Source of the DNA: a virus
Taxonomy: Duplodnaviria > Caudoviricetes
DNA: 60,090 bases
Direction: 5' to 3' (one strand)
Virus record (IMG/VR): IMGVR_UViG_3300002053_000022
Location: 1-60,090 of that record
Shown: positions 2,620 to 26,195 of the stretch, piece by piece
Layout: every line of letters begins with the position of its first letter
Numbering within the stretch: position 1 is the stretch's first letter
Program-made: the position numbers and the translations under genes
Notes under the pieces: generated by a model
The model's input: only the letters and a program-made list of their open reading frames with translations
The model's database searches: none
Told to the model about the DNA's origin: nothing

Positions 2620-3435
2620 ATGGGATATATATACAGATTTGTGACACCACAGGCAATATTGATAGCAGCAAGAGAAAAAGCCATTCTCGAAAAAAGGGAA
2701 CAAGGATATAGAGGGCCAGTTGGAGCAATTCAATTAGGTACTAAAGAAACTATAAAAGCATTTTTGGAATACTTTGATAAGTTAGGAGAAGAAGGTTGGC
2801 TTTATTGTGGAACTGCAGAATACCCAGACCTTCCTTATGGTGGATGTTATGTCTTTAGAAAAGAAAAGCAACCAAAAGCTAAAATTTCTAAAATAGGAAG
2901 AATAACAAAAGTTGAAAGAATAGATGAACTTCCAGTAACAGAAACTTCTACCATTACAGAAGACGAAGATATTTATGCAGAAGACGAAATATTAGATTTG
3001 ACTAGCGAAGAGCCAGAAGAATATAAACCAGAAGAATTAATAAATGCTCCAGCAGATGTCGTTAATGATATTTTGTTTAAAAGACAACTAATTGCTTCCG
3101 AACAAGATCCAGATTTAGAAAGTGATATTATAGATGAACTAGAAACTGCACAAAGTTCAAGTAGCGAAACTGTTGAACAACCAGAACAAGATTTAAAAAT
3201 CATAAGACACCAATTGTATGAATTGTTTAAAGTTGAAAATCAAGGCAAGAAAGCAATTTGGTTAGGAAAAGAAACAAAACAATTTCTTGATTGGTTAGAT
3301 GAAAAAAAATCTAAATACGATCCTTTTTACCAAGCTTATATAGAAGAAACCGACAAACTTCCTATTCACAGAGAAAAGGAAACTGCAGAATATAAACAAT
3401 GGTTAAAAGATAAGCAAGCTGGTAACAATGCCTAA
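2620..3435 (+). CDS. Hypothetical protein (DUF4177-like N-terminus, acidic linker, two C-terminal repeats)
   Basis: LGEEGW...YVFRK N-domain; KKAIWLGKETKQFLDWL and KLPIHREKETAEYKQWL repeats. Confidence 0.5.
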   Translation: MGYIYRFVTPQAILIAAREKAILEKREQGYRGPVGAIQLGTKETIKAFLEYFDKLGEEGWLYCGTAEYPDLPYGGCYVFRKEKQPKAKISKIGRITKVERIDELPVTETSTITEDEDIYAEDEILDLTSEEPEEYKPEELINAPADVVNDILFKRQLIASEQDPDLESDIIDELETAQSSSSETVEQPEQDLKIIRHQLYELFKVENQGKKAIWLGKETKQFLDWLDEKKSKYDPFYQAYIEETDKLPIHREKETAEYKQWLKDKQAGNNA

Positions 3436-4411
3436 TCTTGAAAGAATTTATAGACCTACAAAATTAAGTCAATTCAAAGGAAACGAAAACATCATCAAGG
3501 ATATAGAAGCTTTTTTTAAACTTGGTGATATTCCTCATCTCATGTTTGTTGGGCCTCCAGGGTGTGGTAAAACAACACTAGCCATGATAATAGCTAGTCA
3601 TTTCTTAGGAAGACAAATAAGAATTAATACTCGTGATGGAGATCCAGATTATACTATTTTAAACGCTTCAAGTGAGAGAGGAATCGATGTAGTAAGAGAT
3701 GTTATAACAGAAAGAGCACGAACAAAGCCTATTGATGTTCCTTTTAGATTTATTCAATTAGAAGAATTTGATTCATCAACAGATGATTTTCAACACGCTC
3801 TTAGACCAGTCATGGAAGAAAATGAAGACAGATGTAAATTTATAGTCTGTTTAAATCATATTGAAGGTGTGAAAGAACCAGCCATTATTTCAAGATGTGC
3901 AACATTTTTCTTTAAAAGACCTTCAACAAAAGACGCAGCAGATTTATTATTAGAAATAGCTGAAAAAGAAGGAGTTAAATTTGAAGATCCTCAATTAGCT
4001 TTAGATATTGCAGAATATTATAAAGGAGATTTAAGACATATTCTAAATGATTGTTTAGAAGCACTAAGAGGATACGATGAAGTTATAACAAAAGAGCATT
4101 TGTATAAAGTATATGAAATGACTGGGAGAAGTGTTGCTGAAAGAGTTTTTAAATCCAGCGATCCTCGAAGAAAGTTTTTTGAAATATATAGAACAGAGGC
4201 TTTTGATGTTAGAAATTTCTTAGAAGAATATTATGATTTGTTAAATGATCATAGGTTAGCAAGAGCTTTTGCTAAAATTGATGCTCGTCTTAGAATGTAT
4301 GCAAGTGAAATAGTACAAATTAATTATTTATTTACTATGATAGAACAACACATAAAAGCAAGCACGGTGATAAAAAATGGAACTAGTCCTAAACCTAAAA
4401 GACCTTTCTAA
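3428..4411 (+). CDS. rfcS: Replication factor C small subunit (clamp loader)
   Basis: YRP, GPPGCGKTT, LNASSERGIDVVR, ALR..ME, ISRC and GDLR motifs. Confidence 0.92.
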   Translation: MPNLERIYRPTKLSQFKGNENIIKDIEAFFKLGDIPHLMFVGPPGCGKTTLAMIIASHFLGRQIRINTRDGDPDYTILNASSERGIDVVRDVITERARTKPIDVPFRFIQLEEFDSSTDDFQHALRPVMEENEDRCKFIVCLNHIEGVKEPAIISRCATFFFKRPSTKDAADLLLEIAEKEGVKFEDPQLALDIAEYYKGDLRHILNDCLEALRGYDEVITKEHLYKVYEMTGRSVAERVFKSSDPRRKFFEIYRTEAFDVRNFLEEYYDLLNDHRLARAFAKIDARLRMYASEIVQINYLFTMIEQHIKASTVIKNGTSPKPKRPF

Positions 4412-8890: not shown

Positions 8891-9081
8891 TTTATATGTT
8901 AATGAAATTTGTACCTAAAAAGTGTCCAAATTGTGATGGCAAAGGTTTTATACCTTGGACAGAAGAAGGAGATATGGGGACTGGTGGTTCTTATAAAACA
9001 ACCATCCAAACCATGTGTCATTCTTGTTATGGTACTGGAATAGTTTATGAAATGGTGTATGAAGAATGGGACGGAAATTAA
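8887..9081 (+). CDS. Stand-alone DnaJ-type zinc finger protein
   Basis: CPNCDGKG...CHSCYGTG. Confidence 0.7.
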   Translation: MIYMLMKFVPKKCPNCDGKGFIPWTEEGDMGTGGSYKTTIQTMCHSCYGTGIVYEMVYEEWDGN

Positions 9082-9251
9082 GTGAAATATTTTTAGGAAA
9101 TGTGTTAATTGTTTTAGCTCTTATACCTATGGTTATATGCTTAAACAGTCTAACTGAAATGTTTCCTTATCCAATTTTTTGGACAATAGTTTCGATTTTG
9201 CTATTGTTAGCAATTTCTTACTTAACATACAAGTATGAGAATAAAAAATGA
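9066..9251 (+). CDS. Small two-TM membrane protein
   Basis: Two hydrophobic helices. Confidence 0.55.
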   Translation: MGRKLSEIFLGNVLIVLALIPMVICLNSLTEMFPYPIFWTIVSILLLLAISYLTYKYENKK

Positions 9252-9397
9252 AATGTCCTCGATGTAGTGAAGGAGAAATTAAAGGAGGCACTGGTGTTTT
9301 ATTTTGTCCAGCTTGCCACTCTATTTTTAGCACACAAATGGATTATTTGTATTCATATAAAGAGTATAGATGGGACGAGCAAGGAAACGAATTATGA
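9248..9397 (+). CDS. Small zinc-ribbon protein (49 aa, not in ORF track)
   Basis: MKCPRC...FCPACH; ATGA overlaps on both sides. Confidence 0.6.
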   Translation: MKCPRCSEGEIKGGTGVLFCPACHSIFSTQMDYLYSYKEYRWDEQGNEL

Positions 9398-10674
9398 AGC
9401 TAAAAATAATGAACTACACATATTATAATAACAAATCGGAGAATAAAAATTACAATGCTCCGATATTAATTTTTCTTTGTAGAGATGAGAATAGAAACTT
9501 TCACATGGTTTTTGTCTGTGATAAAGAGAATCTTGCTCCAGAGATGTATATTCCTTTTGAGGAAAAATTCATTGCTGAAAGTGAAGAGATTATTACAAAG
9601 ATAGAAGATTCTCCAGCATCCAACTATGGAGAAAAGGTTGTCAGATTAGAAACAACTTTTCCATGGGAAGTTAAAAAATTAAGAAAGAATTTCACACATA
9701 CCTATTTGAGTGATATTAAATGGGAAAAAATGTGTGTAGAAAAAATGGGATTACAAACTCCTTATATTAAAGTTCCAGATGACTTTAATGAAAGATGGTT
9801 AAAAGTAGAAGATGTTGAAGAATTACCAGACGATGAACACTTCTATGTTCCAATTAGATGGATAGGATGGGACATAGAAACAAATGTTGAAATAATTTGG
9901 CCGACATTCAATGGTTGGCAAGATGCTGAGAAATGTGAGATAATAAGTATAACAGCTTATGATTCTTATGATAAAGTTTATGATATATTTTTCTGGCACA
10001 AAGATGTTATCAATGGAAGAGTTTTGTTATGGAAAAATTGGGAAAGAAAAGGACAATACTATGTTCCAGCCTTAAAAAAAATAAGAGAATATGCCAGAAA
10101 AAATGATGTTTATATTCACGAATTCAATAACGAAGTTGATATGTTAAAGGGATATTTTGATTATTATGCGTCTAAAAGACCAGATGCGCAATTCGGTTTT
10201 AATTCTGAAGGAGGATATAGAATTTCAACAAGAAAAGGATTGTCTCGTAAATATTGGTTTGATGGATTTGATATGCCTTATTTATATCAACGCTGTAAAA
10301 AATTAGGATTATTAGAAGATATTAAAAAGATGTCTCCATTGCCAAAATTTGTAAATGGAGTTAAGTGGAGAGCAGATGGAGACAGACACTCCGTTCAAAT
10401 AGAAGGAGTTTGTCAAATTGATTTTATATTCACAAATGAAATTTTTCAATATCACAAGAAATTTGATGAGTTTAGAGAAGGAAATCTTCAAGGATATATG
10501 AGTTATTTCTTAGGATTTGGAAAGGTTGAACATCAAGAACAGATCTGGGAAATGTGGAAAAATAAAACAGAATCTGATTACGATCCAACTAATCCAGAAT
10601 TGGTTGGAGTAAAGAAAAGAAGAAATTATGTTATGGAGATGTTTGAAGATGGGAAAAAAATGGAACAAATTTAA
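9394..10674 (+). CDS. polB: Family B DNA polymerase, N-terminal and 3'-5' exonuclease part of a split gene
   Basis: Exo I WDIET, Exo II FN...FDMPYL, F.NE.DML; the protein ends just before Exo III. Confidence 0.88.
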   Translation: MKLKIMNYTYYNNKSENKNYNAPILIFLCRDENRNFHMVFVCDKENLAPEMYIPFEEKFIAESEEIITKIEDSPASNYGEKVVRLETTFPWEVKKLRKNFTHTYLSDIKWEKMCVEKMGLQTPYIKVPDDFNERWLKVEDVEELPDDEHFYVPIRWIGWDIETNVEIIWPTFNGWQDAEKCEIISITAYDSYDKVYDIFFWHKDVINGRVLLWKNWERKGQYYVPALKKIREYARKNDVYIHEFNNEVDMLKGYFDYYASKRPDAQFGFNSEGGYRISTRKGLSRKYWFDGFDMPYLYQRCKKLGLLEDIKKMSPLPKFVNGVKWRADGDRHSVQIEGVCQIDFIFTNEIFQYHKKFDEFREGNLQGYMSYFLGFGKVEHQEQIWEMWKNKTESDYDPTNPELVGVKKRRNYVMEMFEDGKKMEQI

Positions 10675-11008
10675 AGACAAATGTGAAGATTTTTGGTGGG
10701 ATCACGACGACGATGTGAAAACAGCATGCAAAGTAATTGCTGGTTTTTTCGTATTAATTATGATAGTTGTTGGATTTATAGGTGTAATGAATGCCACCAT
10801 AGAACAAACAGAAGCACTAGATAACACTCTTCTTATAGAAGGATATGTTGATGGCAAGAGATTAGGTGGAGATACTAATACACAATATATTTTATCTATA
10901 AATGGGACTGAAGTAGAAGTCGATAAAGAATATTACTTTCTAGTGAATATTGGAGATTATGTTAAGGTTTACGAAAGCGGACGAGTAGAAATAATCGAGG
11001 AACCATAA
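10628..11008 (+). CDS. Membrane-anchored small beta-barrel protein
   Basis: One TM helix, then VDKEYYFLVNIGDYVKV. Confidence 0.55.
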   Translation: MLWRCLKMGKKWNKFKDKCEDFWWDHDDDVKTACKVIAGFFVLIMIVVGFIGVMNATIEQTEALDNTLLIEGYVDGKRLGGDTNTQYILSINGTEVEVDKEYYFLVNIGDYVKVYESGRVEIIEEP

Positions 11009-11212
11009 ATGTGGGAACTTTGTTATATGGGTGGAAGATGGGTGTTAAGATGGAGAAGTGGTATTACAAAAGATACTCCAAAATGTCCAAATTGTGGTGT
11101 TTATTTGGAAGTCTTAAAAGAAGGTGTTTATCGCAAACAATCACATGAAAATACTTTTAAATGCCCACAATGTTATTATATGTTAAATATATACAAACCA
11201 GAAGAAAAATGA
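11009..11212 (+). CDS. Zinc-ribbon protein
   Basis: CPNCG...FKCPQC. Confidence 0.6.
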   Translation: MWELCYMGGRWVLRWRSGITKDTPKCPNCGVYLEVLKEGVYRKQSHENTFKCPQCYYMLNIYKPEEK

Positions 11213-11613
11213 TAATCGGTATAATTGGTAGTAGACGAAGAGATTCGCGTGAAGATTATTGGACACTCCGTAACAAAATTACTGATTTAGAAATAAAAGA
11301 CAAAGACCTTGTAACAAAAATAATAACTGGAGACTGTAAAACTGGAGGAGACAAATTTGCGAGAGATTATGCTAACCAGTTTTGGACACTAAAAGTAGAA
11401 TTAATTGTCAAAAAAGTAGATTTTCCTGCGTTTGGTGCTCCTTATTATGATTATGTTAAGGCTTATTATAAGCGCAATGAAGAAATAGCTAAAGAGGAAA
11501 TGGATTATCTTATCGCATTAGTCGCACCAGATAGAACTGGTGGAACAGAAAATACAATAAAACATTTCAAAAAACATCATAAAGATTGGGAAAAGAAGTT
11601 GATTTTAATATGA
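11209..11613 (+). CDS. SLOG-family (YspA/DprA-like) nucleotide-binding protein
   Basis: IGIIGSR, IITGD..GGD, RN..IA and GGTENT; probable start at ATG 11209. Confidence 0.75.
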   Translation: MIIGIIGSRRRDSREDYWTLRNKITDLEIKDKDLVTKIITGDCKTGGDKFARDYANQFWTLKVELIVKKVDFPAFGAPYYDYVKAYYKRNEEIAKEEMDYLIALVAPDRTGGTENTIKHFKKHHKDWEKKLILI

Positions 11614-11792
11614 AAGAGTGTTTTATTTGTAAAAAAAGTAGTTTTGATGATAATAACATACAAGTTAATGTATGTTTAAAATGCTTTGTGGAAGATTTCC
11701 TAAAATTAGTTTTGGAAGACCCTCCAAGAAGTGTTAAGGAAGCAACAAGTATTTACGAACTTCTTCTGAAAAAAATTGGTGAGTTTAAATGA
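11610..11792 (+). CDS. Small zinc-finger protein
   Basis: CFIC...VCLKC. Confidence 0.55.
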   Translation: MKECFICKKSSFDDNNIQVNVCLKCFVEDFLKLVLEDPPRSVKEATSIYELLLKKIGEFK

Positions 11793-11976
11793 ATTTAATA
11801 ACTAGAATTGCAACAAAAATAGTAGTAAAATTACAACATCCGAGATATATTGGTTGGTGTTATGCCGCATACAAATTTTATAGATATGTATTAGGTTATC
11901 ACAAATATAAAGCTTGGAAAGGCGCATTTTTGTTAAATAATTTACGAACTACTTTTAAAAGGTGAGTTTAAATGAA
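11751..11976 (+). repeat. Imperfect direct repeat pair (11751-11793, 11940-11976)
   Basis: ATTTACGAACT...GGTGAGTTTAAATGAA occurs twice. Confidence 0.8.
11789..11965 (+). CDS. Small basic protein (58 aa, not in ORF track)
   Basis: MNLITRIATK...; GGTGA RBS at 11778. Confidence 0.6.
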   Translation: MNLITRIATKIVVKLQHPRYIGWCYAAYKFYRYVLGYHKYKAWKGAFLLNNLRTTFKR

Positions 11977-12169
11977 GATAAAGGCAAAAGTTATAAGTGA
12001 TGATAAATTTCTCACACTTAGAGAATTGGATGAAGCATTTATGAAAGGAACATTGTTTTATCTTGAAACAATGAAATGGAAAGAAAAGGATGATGGTTTA
12101 GAAATAATAATTTTATTGAGGGATTATCCAAATGCTGGAATTTACGATTCCTTTCAAGCAGAAAAATAA
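11972..12169 (+). CDS. Hypothetical protein
   Basis: GGTGA RBS at 11961. Confidence 0.55.
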   Translation: MKIKAKVISDDKFLTLRELDEAFMKGTLFYLETMKWKEKDDGLEIIILLRDYPNAGIYDSFQAEK

Positions 12170-12320
12170 AAGGTTTAGAAAATGTGAAGAATGTGGTAAA
12201 AAGAAATTCACATCTAAACTATATGATGTTTATGATACTGGATTAAATTACTATCAACAGATAATTTGTTGTAATAAATGTTTAAAGGAAGCAAAAGAGC
12301 GTTGTAAAAATGATTTGTGA
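12132..12320 (+). CDS. Small zinc-finger protein
   Basis: CEECG...CCNKC. Confidence 0.55.
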   Translation: MLEFTIPFKQKNKRFRKCEECGKKKFTSKLYDVYDTGLNYYQQIICCNKCLKEAKERCKNDL

Positions 12321-13998
12321 GAAACTATTAGATTATAACTTAGTTGATGTTGAAGGATTAGTTCTTTTGAATGAAGAATTTGGTCTTATAGAAGATCAAT
12401 TTGAACAAGCTCAACTAGTTGTAGCTCCTCCAGAAGATGGTATTTACACTTCTAAAATGCACGACCACGACATGATTAAAGACTTCCGAAACGAAATGGT
12501 TTTTGATACTAAATATCAAAATTGGAAGAGAGAGCCATTAAAAGGAAAGAAACAAATCGGGGAAAAATTCTTAATTACTCTAAAAGAATTAGAAGACCAA
12601 GCAAAAAGAAGAGGATTGGTAGTAGAATATAATTCTCTTGAAGATATTCATAAAGTTGGAGGATATGTACCTCCTCCATTGAGAGCTGGAACATTTGTTT
12701 GGGTATGTGTCATAGATTTCAATAAACAATATCCAAATGCTATAATGAGCTCGAATGCGGGAGTGAGAACTCTCGTCGAATTTGTTGAGGATTTAGGAGA
12801 TAAAATTCTCGGCTATAGTATAAATGAGAAAGGAGAAAAGTTTTTAGGAGAATGGGACAAAAAAGATTTAATAGAAACTCCTATTGCATATTTTAGAAAA
12901 GATGTTCTTTCAGTTAATAGAAAGAAATTTCAAAAATGGTTAAGGTTTAGAGTTGAGGCTCAAAAGAGAGCAAAGGAATACCTTAAGAAAGTTCAAGATC
13001 AAGATGATCCTTTATATAAATTATTAGATGGAAAGCAGTTTAGAATAAAAATATTCACAAATGGTGGATTTGGAATAATGGGCTATCCTAAGGATAGAAA
13101 TTATTCTCAAATTATTTTTAATTCTTGTACTCTTATGTGTCAAGATTTAACAATGAATATGATTAAAATTATAAACGATTTAGGTTATGATACTGTAGGA
13201 GGAGATACAGACTCGTGCTTTCCTATATTACATGCTGACAATTTAGAAGATGCCATAAAAGAAGCTAAGTGGCTTGCCTCTGAAGTTAATAAGAGAATTG
13301 ATAAATATTTGGACGAAGTTTATAACATTCAAGAGCACACCATGACTGTTGATGTTGAAACAATTTCGGATAAATTTATAGTTAAAGCGGCAAAAAATTA
13401 TGTTAAAAGAAATCTTTACAGAGATGGGGTTATTTTAGAAGAGCCACAATTAGAAGTCAAAGGCATCGAAATGAAGAAAAGTAATACATCACGATTGGCT
13501 TCTGATATGCAACAAACTATATTAAATATTCTATTAGATTCACAAACAATTAAAGAAGACTTTGAATTGTTAATGAATGTGTTAGATAAGAATATTCATA
13601 AACTTCCTTGGGATTATGTAGCACCAAAAGGAGCTATAAATAATGATATGGATCATTATAAAGAGGGACATTATAATTCAAGAGGAGCAAAGAATGCCAG
13701 AAAATATTTCAACAAACATATTTTGCCTGGAGAAAATCCTTTTATTCTCCCATTTAAAGAATTTCCAAAGAAGTTAAACGGTCACTTTGTTTCTCCTTAT
13801 AAGAGAGGAGAAAGTTTTGTTTTATCATTTGACAAAGAAGACATCCAAAAAATACAAGAAGCTGGATTTATTCCAGACTGGGAAGATTTAAAGAGAAGTC
13901 AATTAAAAATGAAGTCAGATCCTTTTCTTAGTTTATTAGATACTGATTTCTATAAAGCAGTAGCGCAAACAAAAGTTAGTGATGATATGCAATTATGA
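12310..13998 (+). CDS. polB: Family B DNA polymerase, Exo III and polymerase part of a split gene
   Basis: Exo III YNLVDV, GGYV, motif A DFNKQYP, motif B KxxxNGGFG, motif C GDTDS, AKNY and KGIE. Confidence 0.93.
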   Translation: MICEKLLDYNLVDVEGLVLLNEEFGLIEDQFEQAQLVVAPPEDGIYTSKMHDHDMIKDFRNEMVFDTKYQNWKREPLKGKKQIGEKFLITLKELEDQAKRRGLVVEYNSLEDIHKVGGYVPPPLRAGTFVWVCVIDFNKQYPNAIMSSNAGVRTLVEFVEDLGDKILGYSINEKGEKFLGEWDKKDLIETPIAYFRKDVLSVNRKKFQKWLRFRVEAQKRAKEYLKKVQDQDDPLYKLLDGKQFRIKIFTNGGFGIMGYPKDRNYSQIIFNSCTLMCQDLTMNMIKIINDLGYDTVGGDTDSCFPILHADNLEDAIKEAKWLASEVNKRIDKYLDEVYNIQEHTMTVDVETISDKFIVKAAKNYVKRNLYRDGVILEEPQLEVKGIEMKKSNTSRLASDMQQTILNILLDSQTIKEDFELLMNVLDKNIHKLPWDYVAPKGAINNDMDHYKEGHYNSRGAKNARKYFNKHILPGENPFILPFKEFPKKLNGHFVSPYKRGESFVLSFDKEDIQKIQEAGFIPDWEDLKRSQLKMKSDPFLSLLDTDFYKAVAQTKVSDDMQL

Positions 13999-14439
13999 GT
14001 GGAATTATGGAAGATGTAGAAAAATTCTACAACGACATGAAAGAAATACTTATGAATATTATTGATGTCTATTATGGACAAGACATTATTGATATAGATA
14101 ATGTAATGGAAAAATTTGAAATGTATTTTGAATGAATATAGATAAAGACGATATAGGCGGACTTAAACCATATTTCTTTTTATTGAAAATAAAAGAAGAT
14201 TTGGAAAAAATGAATTGGTTTTGTCGTTATTGTTATAAATTAAAAAAGATACTCGAAACTTATTTTGATGATTATGAGGACATTTAGAATAAAAATGGTA
14301 ATAGAAGAGTTTGATGAAACATTTGGATTTACAACAATCCATGAAACAATAAATACCGCTATTGGGGTACAAAAATTAAAACACTATATAATATCTGCAA
14401 AAGTTTGGGCAGAAAATTTTATGGAGAAGGAGATAGAAA

Positions 14440-14919
14440 ATGGACAAGTGTAAAGGATGTATGTGTCATTATCACGATGAAGAACTTGGATGGTATTGTG
14501 TAGCTCCTGTGTGTATAAAAGATTATAGCTACGATCCAGAAACAAGAATATATACTCTCATTGATAAATCTGAGTGGAAAACAGAAAATCCAAAATTATT
14601 TGAATATGATTCCAAAAATAAAATAGTGGATGTATTTGTTAGAAAGGATGATAGTTGTCCATTTCCATTTCATAGTGAGAATTGGTATCATCAAGGATTT
14701 TATCTTGGTGATTTTTTAAATAGATTAAGAGAACTCCTTAAGAATTTTAAAGGAGAAGATGGTAAATGCCCTGTTTGCACACATTCTACCGAAAAGGTTT
14801 ATTGGTATGATTCCGATTTTTGGGGGAATGGCGAGGCTACTAAGACTGGTGAATGTGTGCTTTGCGGGGCAAAAATATATAAAGTATTTAAATTTGTAGG
14901 AATTGAGTTGCTTGAATAA
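14440..14919 (+). CDS. Cys-rich hypothetical protein
   Basis: CKGC...C...C and CPVC...CVLCG. Confidence 0.55.
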   Translation: MDKCKGCMCHYHDEELGWYCVAPVCIKDYSYDPETRIYTLIDKSEWKTENPKLFEYDSKNKIVDVFVRKDDSCPFPFHSENWYHQGFYLGDFLNRLRELLKNFKGEDGKCPVCTHSTEKVYWYDSDFWGNGEATKTGECVLCGAKIYKVFKFVGIELLE

Positions 14920-15852: not shown

Positions 15853-16570
15853 AGAAAATCCAAAAACAAAAGGTAGTGGTATTGTTTGTGCGATTCCACA
15901 AACGGGTCGTTGTCCAAACGAATGCGAAGATTGCTTTTTCCAATCTGGAAGAAGTTATTTAGAACCATTAGACGAAAATTTACCTAATATGCCAATGAAT
16001 CTTATGGATAGAATTGTTCGCGTAAACGATGGGAACGATAGTAATGTAGATAGAGAAGAAGTATTAAGAGCTACTCAGCACTATATATTCAAATTTTATA
16101 ATACAGCTATACCAAATAATTTAGAAGGATTTGAAGAGCCAGTAGTTTTAACAATTAATCCTGGCAAAATGACTAATAAAGGATTTTATACGCTGTATGA
16201 TATACCAAAGAATTTAATGTTTGTAAGAATTAGAACTAATATGTGGAATTTGCATTTGGTTTTATCAGCAGTAAAGCATTATACGGAGAGAGAAGTTCCA
16301 GTAGTTCTAACATTTATGGCATATTTTGACACAGCCGATAACATACCAGAATCTTGTAGGCAATATTATACTTTTAGAAAGAGAACAACAAATTCTTACT
16401 GGGCTATTACAACTGAAGGATGGGAGATTATTATGAACTATTTTAAATATAATAAATGGGTTCATAGTTGTGGTAAAATTGAGGGAGAAAAAGGAGACAC
16501 TCATTGTAGATTTTGTGGAAACTGTCTAAGAGAATATTATGCGACATTGGAGAGAATGAAATGCGAATAG
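15830..16570 (+). CDS. Radical-SAM-like Fe-S protein
   Basis: CPNECEDC fits CxxxCxxC; extra C-terminal CRFCGNC. Confidence 0.6.
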   Translation: MSMMTGYKENPKTKGSGIVCAIPQTGRCPNECEDCFFQSGRSYLEPLDENLPNMPMNLMDRIVRVNDGNDSNVDREEVLRATQHYIFKFYNTAIPNNLEGFEEPVVLTINPGKMTNKGFYTLYDIPKNLMFVRIRTNMWNLHLVLSAVKHYTEREVPVVLTFMAYFDTADNIPESCRQYYTFRKRTTNSYWAITTEGWEIIMNYFKYNKWVHSCGKIEGEKGDTHCRFCGNCLREYYATLERMKCE

Positions 16571-17424
16571 GACAATCATTAATAGGTTGGTATGGAGGAA
16601 AGTTTAATTTATTAAAACATTTCTTGCCGTTTCCAGCTCACACAACATTTATAGAAGTATTTGGAGGATCTGGAGTTGTTTTATTCAACAAAATTCCTTC
16701 GGAAATAGAAGTCTATAATGATATTAATTCCAGATTAATTAACATGTGGCAAGCCATCAAGATAGACAGAAGAAAGTTTATAGATTTTGCCGCTAATGAA
16801 TATGGAATAGATAGCAGAGCGCTATTTGATTACGCTAAGAACAATATTGCTGATGATAAGATAGAAGACGCAGCAAGATTTTATTATATAAATCGCCACT
16901 CGTTTTCTCAAATGAATGAATCTTATCACGGAATTTCATTTAATGGAAAAGAACATTGGCATACTCCTTATCTCAATAAATTAAAACAAATAGAAAAATA
17001 TTACGAAAGAATTAAATTTGTTCAACTTGAAAACCAAGATTTTAGAACTATTATGAAGAGATGTGATAGAGATGGAGTATTGCTTTTTGTAGATCCTCCT
17101 TATTTTAAAGGTGGAGAAGTTTATGAGCTTATGGTTGGAATGGATAAAGAAGAAAATTCTTGGTCTTTAAAAGAATTTGAAGATTTAAAAGAACTATTAT
17201 TAGGTTATAAGAAAGCCAAATTTGTTTTAACTGTTGATAACAAGGAATTCTTTCATAGCGAAGATTGGTTTTATCAAGAGGTTGAAAGAATTAATGCAGC
17301 ATCCTTTTGTGTAGGTAAAGAGAAATCAAAGGATATTGAATATGTCATAAGGAATTTTGATCCAGCAACCACTCCAACAATGGAAATTTACGAGAATAAA
17401 GTTACAGATGATATGGAATTATGA
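16561..17424 (+). CDS. Dam-like (D12 class) DNA adenine methyltransferase
   Basis: WYGGK, EVFGGSG, YNDIN, DPPY; probable start at ATG 16561. Confidence 0.92.
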   Translation: MRIGQSLIGWYGGKFNLLKHFLPFPAHTTFIEVFGGSGVVLFNKIPSEIEVYNDINSRLINMWQAIKIDRRKFIDFAANEYGIDSRALFDYAKNNIADDKIEDAARFYYINRHSFSQMNESYHGISFNGKEHWHTPYLNKLKQIEKYYERIKFVQLENQDFRTIMKRCDRDGVLLFVDPPYFKGGEVYELMVGMDKEENSWSLKEFEDLKELLLGYKKAKFVLTVDNKEFFHSEDWFYQEVERINAASFCVGKEKSKDIEYVIRNFDPATTPTMEIYENKVTDDMEL

Positions 17425-23620: not shown

Positions 23621-24400
23621 ATGATTGTTATAGATAGCAGAGAGCCTTCAGAAGTTTTTGAGGCTTTTGAAGAAAAAGGAGTGCCTTATATTAAGGCGGC
23701 ACTAAACTTCTACTCTTGCAAAGAATGTAAGAAAGTGGATTTTGTAAAATTTGAAGTTTGCCCAGAATGTGGAAGTAAAGATATAATGGTAGAAGACGCT
23801 GGAGACTTCACAAACACAACAAGATCATTCTTAGTTGAAAGAAAGACAGAAGGAGATTTCATTGGTTCAATGTTAGATAAATCCCTTCAACAACAAGCGG
23901 CAAGAATGGCTAAATATTTTGGTGGATGGAAGTTTGTCTTCTTAGAAGGATTTATTACAGTTATGGTTGATAATCCTTATAATCAAAAAATTAGACCTTG
24001 GATAAAATCAATGCGTGTTTATCTTAGACAATTCGATATTTGTATGTGGCAAATGGATGACATATATATGTTGATTGATGAACTTGTCAGATTAGATAAG
24101 AATGCTGGTGAAGATCCAAAAGTTTATGATAAAGTAGATGATAAATATTCTGGATGGTCAGATAGCAAGAAAATTGTTTGTAAATTAGTTGATGTTTCTG
24201 ATAAAAAGGCAGATGTTTTATTAGAAGAGTTTAAAACTCCTTGGGATATATTTAATGCAATTATGAGCTCAAAAATTCTCTATACCAGAACTGGTAATCC
24301 TAAAGGAGTTTCTGGGCCGTTAGCAAAAGTAAAAGGATTTGGGCATAAATTTGTAACAAAAAATCAAGACATGTTGTTAAATAAAGATGGAAATAAGTGA
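23621..24400 (+). CDS. ERCC4/XPF-family nuclease with zinc-ribbon insertion
   Basis: IDSRE, GDF, VERKT..DF, LEG; HhH-like C-terminus. Confidence 0.85.
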   Translation: MIVIDSREPSEVFEAFEEKGVPYIKAALNFYSCKECKKVDFVKFEVCPECGSKDIMVEDAGDFTNTTRSFLVERKTEGDFIGSMLDKSLQQQAARMAKYFGGWKFVFLEGFITVMVDNPYNQKIRPWIKSMRVYLRQFDICMWQMDDIYMLIDELVRLDKNAGEDPKVYDKVDDKYSGWSDSKKIVCKLVDVSDKKADVLLEEFKTPWDIFNAIMSSKILYTRTGNPKGVSGPLAKVKGFGHKFVTKNQDMLLNKDGNK

Positions 24401-26195
24401 TGTTAGAAATTATATTGCACAGGAATGCCTTCAGTTTGTCAGATATGGCAAAGGTAATTTAATTTTTAACACATTTACTGGTTCTGGAAAAACAACAACA
24501 ATTTTAAAAACACTTTATGAAAGTGAAGATGGATTCACATGGATGTATTTTGCGCCTTACCACAAAGTTATAGAAGAAAACATAGAGCTTTCGAGCGTTA
24601 TAGACTTTTATAATTTAGTACATTTACAAGCGAGAAAACATGTTTGTTTATCAAAAGAATTTAGAACATTAGCAGAAAATAAAATAAATATAGCTCCATT
24701 TTGTGAAAATTTTTGTACTAAGAGAGATGATGGTTGTCCTTATTATGAAAACTTAAGAATATTGAGAGAGATGCCAACCTGTTTTGCTGGAGTTCATTCA
24801 CATATACCAACTCTTTTACAAACTCTTTTGTATGAAAAATGGTCTAATAAATGTTTATTTAATTATTATGATGTTATTATAATTGATGAATTTCCATTAA
24901 GCACTATTTATAATCAAATTTCGATAACAAAAAGAGATATAGATTATTGTAGAGATGTGTTAGAATTAACACAAATTCAATCTAATGAATCAGCTGTTTT
25001 AATGATGATGTTAGACCAGCTCTCATTGGCTACCGATGCTATTGAAATAAACTATGAAAAAATATATCACATTGTAGAGGGTATAAGAGGATTAAACTTC
25101 GATAAATTTAAAGAACAATATGATATTGAAATATTAAATCTTATAAGAAAAAAGAGAATTTTATCACCTCCACAAGAAATATTACATTATTTATCGGAGA
25201 TACACAAAGTAAAACCTTCTGTTGAAAAATTGAGATGGATGATATATAAAACAAAGAACAATCAATGGCATAGAGGAATGATACATTTAACAATATCAAA
25301 TCTCCCATCATTTCTTAGTTTGCCGATAAAAGTTATTGCTCTTGATGGAACAGCAGATTTAGAAACTTGGAAAAATGTGTTAGGAGATGATTGCACATCT
25401 ATAAGTTTTGATATTGAATATAAAAATACATATCAATTAATTGGAGCAAGAAACCCTGTAAGTACTATAATAAAAAATGGTAAATTGTCTGGCTCTGGAA
25501 AGAGGTTATTTGATTTATTAGCAACAATTTGTGAAAACAAAGAAGGAAAAGTTCTTATTTGTTGTACTAAACGAGTTCAAACATTATTAGCAAAAGAGTT
25601 TAAAAAGAGATACATAGATAATTATGTATTTGCTACATATTTTAATTTAAGATCCAGAAATTCCTACTATGAAGAATGTGATACTTGTGTAGTGTTTCAC
25701 GAACCAAATATTCCACCATTTCAAGTTGAAATAATTAGAGAATTATTGCGTTGGCCTGAGGATGTTGTTATTAAAGTTCACAGAGAAGATGAAATGAAAC
25801 AAGGTATAGGAAGAGAAAGACAAAATATTCCTATAACACCAAGAGGAAGAAAAAGAGGTTTGAGAGAAATTTACATATTCTCATCTACTGGTTATAACAG
25901 ACTAGTGCCAGAAGCAAAATATATGATTAGCAATGATATGTATGCTTATATAAAAGGTGGAAAGAAAAGATTATTTTTTGAGAAACTTAGAGAAATTCTC
26001 GGAAAATATTGTCCCGCATCTAAGACAAAATTAAAAACATTATTAGGATTGCCAACAACAAAATTTAATCATATTTTAAGAATTTTAGAAGAAGAAGGAG
26101 TTGTGAAAGTTTCATGGGGAAAGGTGGAATATTTAGAAGAATTAAGAGAAGAAGACGAAGAAAAATATTTGATAAGGATTGGAAGAGCTTGGTAG
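24387..26195 (+). CDS. Superfamily 2 helicase-like protein (Fe-S Cys cluster, C-terminal wHTH)
   Basis: TGSGKTT, C...C...C...CPYY, IIIDE and QGIGR.R. Confidence 0.75.
   Translation: MEISDVRNYIAQECLQFVRYGKGNLIFNTFTGSGKTTTILKTLYESEDGFTWMYFAPYHKVIEENIELSSVIDFYNLVHLQARKHVCLSKEFRTLAENKINIAPFCENFCTKRDDGCPYYENLRILREMPTCFAGVHSHIPTLLQTLLYEKWSNKCLFNYYDVIIIDEFPLSTIYNQISITKRDIDYCRDVLELTQIQSNESAVLMMMLDQLSLATDAIEINYEKIYHIVEGIRGLNFDKFKEQYDIEILNLIRKKRILSPPQEILHYLSEIHKVKPSVEKLRWMIYKTKNNQWHRGMIHLTISNLPSFLSLPIKVIALDGTADLETWKNVLGDDCTSISFDIEYKNTYQLIGARNPVSTIIKNGKLSGSGKRLFDLLATICENKEGKVLICCTKRVQTLLAKEFKKRYIDNYVFATYFNLRSRNSYYEECDTCVVFHEPNIPPFQVEIIRELLRWPEDVVIKVHREDEMKQGIGRERQNIPITPRGRKRGLREIYIFSSTGYNRLVPEAKYMISNDMYAYIKGGKKRLFFEKLREILGKYCPASKTKLKTLLGLPTTKFNHILRILEEEGVVKVSWGKVEYLEELREEDEEKYLIRIGRAW

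Follow-up and report, generated by a model that had tools for sequence, protein, structure and literature searches.

A family B DNA polymerase encoded by two genes and divided within the proofreading domain in a tailed virus

The IMG/VR record IMGVR_UViG_3300002053_000022 of a tailed virus (Caudoviricetes), a complete record of 60,090 bases, linear and with an estimated completeness of about 61%, was analysed over its whole length and is referred to below as the window. It carries the parts of a family B DNA polymerase (PolB) in two genes, polB-N and polB-C, encoding the proteins A and B, with seven small open reading frames (ORFs) lying between them. The question raised by this locus is whether the halves act as separate polypeptides or are rejoined into one. 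A first-pass annotation had offered two answers: a two-subunit polymerase whose proofreading site is assembled in trans, or an unrecognised rejoining event at the RNA or DNA level. The present analysis favours the former. An obligate two-subunit family B polymerase, in which the exonuclease site would be a composite of two proteins, has in our estimate a probability of about 0.8, judging from the sequences and a model of the complex. This reading is supported by a break fixed at one residue in a monophyletic clade despite the turnover of the gap content, by the invariance of all catalytic residues on both halves, and by an A tail with its own stop, a B gene with its own start codon, and a complex model that passed its controls.

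Two halves of one polymerase

Protein A matches the PolB exonuclease domain PF03104 with 42 bits and protein B the PolB polymerase domain PF00136 with 81.3 bits, the Pfam cut-off being 23 in both cases. On the DNA polymerase profile PHROG 262 (856 positions), A covers positions 9-307 and B positions 308-793, and in an hhalign comparison with 11 fused relatives (929 columns) the A family occupies columns 7-381 and the B family columns 381-929. From these ranges, together with the Pfam domains, A and B partition one family B polymerase exactly, and the two segments are adjacent in intact enzymes, as had been proposed in the first-pass annotation. With both Pfam domains above the cut-off, the residues of Exo I-III, and the polymerase motifs A (Dx2-3YP), B (Kx3Nx2(Y/F)G) and C (DTD), the pair is classified as a replicative family B DNA polymerase of the T4/B5-like group, and both polymerase and exonuclease activities are predicted.

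Since alignment with T4 gp43 places Exo I and Exo II on A and Exo III on B, the break falls inside the exonuclease domain, in the variable surface loop that precedes the Exo III helix. It lies 6 residues before the Exo III Tyr and about 12 before the Exo III Asp, corresponding approximately to residues 311/312 of T4 gp43. In A, QIWEMWKN ends at nucleotide 10563, and 36 residues and a TAA stop codon come after it. The N-terminus of B is MICEKLLDYNLVDVE, with EKLL encoded from 12319, and in its opening, MICEKLLDYNLVDV, Y9 and D13 align with the Exo III residues Y320 and D324 of T4 gp43. The earlier placement of Exo I and Exo II on a first gene, with the homologous segment reaching 10563, and of Exo III on a second gene beginning with MIC agrees with these alignments; Exo III is not already contained in the first ORF. 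Further downstream, B carries polymerase motifs A (DFNKQYPN at 136, with D136), B (KIFTNGGFG, 247-255) and C (GGDTDS at 297, with D299 and D301). The reading frame of A is open from 9370 to 10674 on the plus strand and includes an ATG at 9370; position 9394, where the ATG overlaps the upstream stop codon as ATGA and the stored protein P0027 begins, is the likelier start.

Conservation was examined in alignments of 11 A-family and 11 B-family sequences, with identities of 42-69%. The A homologues are 415-434 amino acids long and 52-68% identical to A of the window, and the carboxylates D160, E162 and D293 are invariant in all of them. The 11 B-family proteins likewise show no variation at Y9, at D13 or at the catalytic positions of motifs A, B and C, so that every catalytic residue is kept and both halves are intact, as annotated.

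The 36 residues at the end of A had been taken for an unrelated addition. Their number is correct, but they are not unrelated: the core of this tail (Y396, D397, P398, P401 and N411) is invariant in 11 of 11 A-family proteins, which identifies the tail at the sequence level as a conserved, clade-specific element rather than filler. According to hhalign it has no counterpart among the match columns of the fused relatives, in which the position of the break is taken up by nothing more than a variable loop of 0 to about 30 residues. When the tail was aligned locally with such loops, one of four fused proteins (P0014, with DNYDPEL) scored above all 300 shuffles and the other three did not, which is only a hint that tail and loop could be homologous.

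Protein B ends with KVSDDMQL, and among the 194 window ORFs of at least 50 amino acids an ending of this type was found in two, B and the DNA methyltransferase at 16513-17424 (KVTDDMEL). This shared terminus may be a sliding-clamp-binding tail. In the related locus L007, B (8897-10573) and the next ORF but one downstream (10697-11368) both end with SNDMEL.

Origin of the split and turnover of the gap

Among 28 metagenome loci with related polymerases, six are split at the same point, 14 are fused and 38-45% identical to B, three are fused and distant (26-31% identity), and five are truncated and uninformative. Across the viral and metagenome contigs that were compared, the split loci of the clade (the window, L002/L010, L003/L011, L004/L041, L005, L007/L015, L012/L039, L013 and L036) represent seven distinct gap configurations. 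In the close clade, every locus in which both halves are visible has the same A tail end and the same B start residue, and A and B are neighbours in every locus seen. The distance from the stop codon of A to the start codon of B is 1635 nucleotides in the window and 154, 367 or 600 nucleotides in the other configurations with exact boundaries, while gaps of about 0.75-0.95 kb were estimated from tblastn ends for L012, L013 and L036. Relatives thus share the break point and have different inserts, one of the checks that the first-pass annotation had proposed.

A maximum-likelihood tree was built from the region from Exo III onward for 26 sequences, leaving out P0002 because of its intein and P0017 and P0026 as fragments. 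The eight split sequences form one group with support values of 100/99, and most of the sister group is fused, as are L031, L032 and T4. With a monophyletic split group and fused relatives outside it, the split is a derived state with a single origin in the window clade. On the sequence evidence, the split is real, ancestral to the clade and selectively maintained, and it divides the proofreading domain.

Only 31 of 1.84 billion representative proteins match B at E ≤1e-30, and among these 31, B-type starts near Exo III occur in the window clade (P0002, P0009) and in P0012. Three proteins of the mostly fused sister group, P0011, P0012 and P0013 (564-598 amino acids), begin with M..NG..R..GKGIEF(L/M)MDYNL, which places their start in this loop as well but about 11 residues farther upstream, and may represent independent splits; a scan of viral contigs with their alignment yielded no relative, and they are absent from the 28 metagenome loci. 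Protein P0049 (566 amino acids, 32% identity), which starts about 38 residues before Exo III, was not counted, as it may be a truncated call.

The gap of the window is occupied by seven tightly packed small ORFs on the plus strand, as annotated: one with a hydrophobic span, three Cys-rich or Zn-ribbon-like, one YAcAr/DprA-like (SLOG-type), and two without a match (Table 1). For the third of them the nearest atlas clusters carry PF10686/PF02481, with a score of 0.93, which serves as a lead only, and an NCBIfam search with four of the gap ORFs added nothing. Between the Zn-ribbon ORF upstream of A and the second ORF after B, 6 of 11 junctions are 4-nucleotide ATGA overlaps. Four terminator-like sites were found, none of them in the gap, and promoter-like sites occur at the level of shuffled sequences (37 versus a mean of 30.2).

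The gap ORFs are mostly unrelated between loci, and those of the window gave no tblastn match in the first six relatives. In an all-against-all blastp comparison of gap ORFs, the second ORF of the window was the only one of its seven with relatives in other gaps: it matches an 87-amino-acid ORF of L010 at 7e-4, which in turn matches a 94-amino-acid ORF of L015 at 3e-10, so that a Zn-ribbon family is present in three gap configurations. A second Zn-ribbon family of 36-37 amino acids, located directly after A, is common to L005 and L015. These recurring Zn-ribbon proteins could be accessories of the polymerase or merely persistent cargo.

The gap of the window also contains direct repeats of about 45 nucleotides at 11751-11798 and 11940-11981, on both sides of the fifth ORF, each consisting of an ORF end, GGTGA and the ATG that follows. 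They resemble the boundary of a cassette, through which small genes could be gained or lost. In one contig of the DNA run X2, positions 11613-11774, comprising most of the fourth ORF, are replaced by 57 other letters, which means that the gap is still changing among near-identical strains.

Inteins were encountered elsewhere in the polymerase halves of relatives (Table 1). They are true in-frame inteins with Pfam Intein_splicing and LAGLIDADG_3 domains, and the one in L006 occupies an unusual place.

Assembly of the two chains and rival explanations

The complex of A and B was modelled from the two family alignments, and a score of 0.92 was obtained in three of three runs, as compared with 0.00 for the best of three controls. 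Of 157 solved complexes, 116 attain this mark, as do 2 of 215 mismatched pairs; these counts are approximate here, since custom alignments were used. The runs share at least 97% of contacts, and the partner pLDDT (predicted local distance difference test) was 86. In the model, residues 1-31 of B, including the Exo III helix, pack against residues 154-162 (the Exo I strand), 184-189 and 264-269 of A, residue 14 of B touches residues 158-160 of A, and residues 409-424 of the A tail contact residues 393-436 of B. These predicted contacts correspond to the geometry expected if two chains reconstitute an intact PolB fold and the tail serves as an additional strap. The structure prediction suggested by the first-pass annotation comes out on the side of a complex.

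The following scheme can be proposed. The polymerase would be produced as two chains encoded in a compact string of genes, all in one orientation. The carboxylates of Exo I and Exo II (D160, E162 and D293) would come from subunit A together with the N-terminal domain, whose remainder would be supplied by subunit B along with the Exo III helix (Y9, D13), palm, fingers, thumb and a probable clamp-binding tail. The chains would interdigitate into one enzyme with a composite 3'-5' proofreading site, held together additionally by the conserved C-terminal tail of A strapped onto B. The split arose once, in the ancestor of the clade, and the intercistronic space has later gained and lost small genes, mostly those of Zn-ribbon proteins. 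Gene anatomy, partition, conservation, single origin and the lack of splicing signals are direct results of the comparison; assembly, the composite active site and the function of the tail are inferred.

Several observations weigh against this scheme. D293 of A is outside the list of predicted interface residues, which leaves the geometry of the composite site undefined by the model, and the complex score may reflect a memory of single-chain PolB structures, that is, likeness to an intact PolB rather than binding. As to translation, the ATG of B in the window is not preceded by a clear Shine-Dalgarno sequence, and B of L002 must start at TTG. Finally, a conserved Cys is located directly at the N-terminal boundary of B (MIC, LIC, TVC or EIC) and resembles the +1 residue of a C-extein. 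In the window this is Cys3, encoded at 12316-12318, and a Cys occupies the same position in L002, L004, L005, L012, L013 and L036; the aligned fused relatives have Ile, Leu or Asp there. It may be the fossil +1 residue of a lost intein or have another role. On the other side, each of the four distinct contexts that were read at the start of B (five loci, L004 and L007 being identical there) provides a start codon for B itself, and one of them has the Shine-Dalgarno sequence GAGGTG.

For the halves to be rejoined at the nucleic acid level into one mRNA and one polypeptide, the 1.6-kb insert would have to be removed, either as an intron of group I, group II or archaeal bulge-helix-bulge type that escaped recognition, or as a DNA element capable of excision. 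Such an explanation would fit the common frame of A and B in the window, and the host may be archaeal, given the RFC-like, ERCC4 and XPD-like genes nearby; some archaeal mRNAs are spliced by a structure-based endonuclease. Pairing between the junctions exceeded that of all 200 shuffles in one of seven loci (L013), but it remained within the range of the shuffles in the other six. In L010, L011 and L012 the frames of A and B differ, the gap may be as short as 154 nucleotides and still hold an ORF, and the A tail, extending past the homology break, is kept as protein with its own stop in all 11 cases, which is not expected of an intron. A permissive E-value scan of positions 9000-14500 against Rfam returned no intron family, only a sub-threshold match to mir-2. 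The ends of the insert lack flanking direct repeats, and neither recombinase nor intein domains were found in the gap ORFs of the window with Pfam and PHROG. Homing endonucleases of the HNH, GIY-YIG and LAGLIDADG types, one of which would be expected in a gene split of the mobE/nrdA kind, had no match among these seven ORFs or the seven scanned gap ORFs of relatives. An excised form was looked for in contigs of four DNA runs (X1-X4), and none skips the insert. The absence of intein, homing endonuclease and intron signals at the break noted in the first-pass annotation is thus borne out, while the rejoining event offered there as the second option is not, and we regard it as very unlikely.

The boundary Cys is an argument for protein trans-splicing in the manner of the Nanoarchaeum equitans PolB, here by a degenerate split intein. 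Inteins are also active in the clade (in motif C of the L005 B, near Exo II of the L006 A, and in P0002), and for the Methanobacteriales a published proposal traces split PolB genes to the erratic loss of inteins (PMC4104785). However, only 2 to about 10 residues precede the Cys of B, with no His-Asn, so that there is no room for a C-intein; no Cys or Ser that could act as a nucleophile is conserved where the homology ends and the A tail starts; and the Pfam intein domains that detect the true inteins of relatives are absent from A and B, the +1 Cys being the only intein-like feature present. Trans-splicing therefore appears extremely improbable.

A different objection would be that no joint proofreading enzyme exists, with B polymerising alone and lacking exonuclease activity, and A either an independent protein or one in decay; indeed, the break takes Exo III away from the rest of the nuclease fold. 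But the Exo I, II and III residues are invariant across the clade although they are located on different chains, which is expected only under selection for a composite site, A and B adjoin wherever they were seen, and without A the first 31 residues of B and its part of the N-terminal domain would be an orphan structure. Separate products are unlikely in our opinion. As for an assembly artefact or a chimeric contig, the record was assembled from a metagenome, possibly from run X1 itself. Nevertheless, the same architecture is present in independent contigs, and in a comparison with positions 9000-14500 the junctions were bridged, besides X1, by contigs of runs from other studies: X2 bridges both the A-to-gap and the gap-to-B junction, and X3 and X4 the latter. 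The misassembly for which the first-pass annotation had asked to check is accordingly a negligible possibility.

If a two-subunit enzyme with a composite site is assumed, the location of Exo III on the polymerase chain would make proofreading dependent on A. One could hypothesise that fidelity is tunable, for instance through a B-only error-prone mode set by the A:B ratio, by timing or by a small gap protein, for which the Zn-ribbon ORF common to three gap configurations would be one candidate; the split would then be a regulatory device and not a neutral accident. We consider this proposal improbable.

Genome context and known split polymerases

The window has a guanine plus cytosine (GC) content of about 31%, and its GC skew changes sign near 31 kb, where the replication module of the plus strand meets the structural module of the minus strand. 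The plus-strand half encodes a replication and DNA-modification module, including a deoxynucleoside monophosphate kinase, an RFC-like clamp loader, methyltransferases, glycosyltransferases, an Mre11-like nuclease, an ERCC4 nuclease and an XPD-like helicase, and the minus-strand half a myovirus-type structural module with a gp6-like baseplate wedge protein, a Mu-like portal protein and a large terminase. The clamp loader, the ERCC4 nuclease and the XPD-like helicase lend the replication module an archaeal or eukaryotic flavour, which does not establish the domain of the host. No tRNA genes were found in the window. A search of genome contigs for the host matched only two contigs of metagenome-assembled genomes (MAGs), assigned to an uncultured bacterium (41%) and a Chlorobiaceae MAG (26%). 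The runs in which the window sequence is present are labelled as marine sediment and seawater metagenomes, and no RNA run is among those listed for the polymerase region.

Table 1. Coordinates of features in the window and in related loci (positions without a locus name refer to the window)
Feature	Position	Strand	Description
RFC-like clamp loader	3428-4411	+	RCF1-5-type lid
polB-N (A)	9394..10674	+	426 aa (amino acids); N-terminal domain, exonuclease domain through Exo II, then clade-specific tail
Exo I	9868..9882	+	WDIET (D160, E162); aligns with T4 gp43 CDIEV, D112/E114
Exo II	10264..10281	+	GFDMPY (D293); aligns with T4 gp43 GFDVPY, D219
C-terminal tail of A	10564..10671	+	aa 391-426; SDYDP(S/T)xP ... 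N(L/Y)(V/I)KEL(Y/F/W)
Gap ORF 1	10628..11008	+	126 aa; one hydrophobic span; no family found; no tblastn match in relatives
Gap ORF 2	11009..11212	+	67 aa; Zn ribbon; weak Zn-ribbon Pfam matches; family shared with L010 and L015
Gap ORF 3	11209..11613	+	134 aa; YAcAr/DprA-like (SLOG-type); PHROG 289 at 3.4e-11
Gap ORF 4	11610..11792	+	60 aa; Cys-rich
Gap ORF 5	11789..11965	+	58 aa; direct repeats of about 45 nt on both sides (repeat families D2, D3)
Gap ORF 6	11972..12169	+	65 aa; no family found
Gap ORF 7	12132..12320	+	62 aa; Zn ribbon; 11-nt overlap with start of B
polB-C (B)	12310..13998	+	562 aa; Exo III helix, remainder of N-terminal domain, palm, fingers, thumb
Exo III	12325..12351	+	LLDYNLVDV (Y9, D13), core YNLVD; aligns with T4 YISYNIIDV
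C-terminal tail of B	13972..13995	+	KVSDDMQL; resembles end of window methyltransferase
ERCC4 nuclease	23621-24400	+
XPD-like (DEAD_2) helicase	24387-26195	+
Zn-ribbon gap ORF of L010	L010:3770-4033		Same family as gap ORF 2
Zn-ribbon gap ORF of L015	L015:5449-5733		Same family as gap ORF 2
Intein-containing gene of L005	L005:1327-3954		B homologue, 875 aa; intein at motif C (GGD|TDS)
Intein-containing gene of L006	L006:5036-7204		A homologue, >722 aa; intein in exonuclease domain near Exo II
Intein in protein P0002

Family B polymerases encoded by two genes have been described in several lineages, and the break positions of phages RM378 and Octan were also checked directly. The PolB of N. equitans is encoded by two genes with a split intein (PMC4104785); its halves carry the intein halves and are trans-spliced, while the window genes have no detectable intein parts. 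Group B magroviruses, which are viruses of archaea, have a split DNA polymerase with the break in the catalytic domain (PMC5434244), and the archaeal PolB of Methanothermobacter is broken in the palm (PMC3061061). Both resemble the window in having two genes without inteins, but their breaks are in the polymerase part and not in the exonuclease domain. In the chimallivirus PhiKZ, DNAP-N and DNAP-C were seen by cryo-electron microscopy as an interdigitated 1:1 heterodimer with both activities; the split is described as located in a palm insertion, with all four exonuclease carboxylates on DNAP-N (PMC13648687). Unlike in the window clade, the two PhiKZ genes are not adjacent, and the exonuclease carboxylates belong to one chain. 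Rhodothermus phage RM378, with a break at the boundary of the N-terminal domain and the palm (PMC3061061), is similar to the window in that a tailed-phage PolB is encoded by two genes with the nuclease part apart from the polymerase part. In RM378, however, the first residue of the polymerase piece (Rm378p092) is located 24 positions ahead of motif A, near T4 residue 384. Since this start is about 70 residues downstream of the window break, the RM378 polymerase gene does not carry Exo III, and, judged from this gene alone, the proofreading site would not be divided.

The published natural family B breaks that we found leave the 3'-5' exonuclease site on one chain, whereas the break of the window clade divides it and has been kept through divergence to about 52% identity. 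No report of a family B break between Exo II and Exo III, or elsewhere inside the exonuclease domain, was found in a literature search that left many subscription papers outside its reach. If the composite site is active, it would follow that the exonuclease fold can be cut in the loop ahead of the Exo III helix, a tolerance of use in engineering split or conditionally proofreading polymerases. The clade would also offer a natural system with an evolved docking tail for studying the assembly of an obligate heterodimer, and the intercistronic space of a split essential gene could be regarded as a long-lived landing site for small genes.

The closest parallel is provided by the split gp43 of T4-related phages. 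In phages 133, 44RR, 31, 25 and 65 the break is at the fingertip, and the gaps between the two genes range from 2 bp to 3 kb (PMC3061061); for Aeromonas phage 25, the gp43A and gp43B halves co-purify and are active (PMC2988022). Like the window, the gp43A/gp43B systems of Aeromonas phages 25, 44RR, 31 and 65 and of Acinetobacter phage Octan and its relatives are intein-less, belong to the T4/B5-like group, and consist of two co-oriented cistrons; their gaps, from a few bases to kilobases, likewise hold small unrelated ORFs, of which Octan has six hypothetical ones between 43A and 43B. The window, too, has two cistrons without an intron or intein signal, and the complex model is what suggests that they form one enzyme. 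The difference lies in the position of the break, which in the window is not in the fingers but 6 residues ahead of the Exo III Tyr: Octan 43A (502 amino acids) ends in the fingers and keeps the whole exonuclease domain, while the break of the window clade occurs about 190 residues earlier. Moreover, A of the window clade carries a predicted clade-specific docking tail, unlike the gp43A/gp43B type. Therefore, by sequence and by analogy, the polymerase of the window clade appears to resemble the known intein-less split gp43 enzymes, although it is split at a new position and its first subunit has a dedicated tail.

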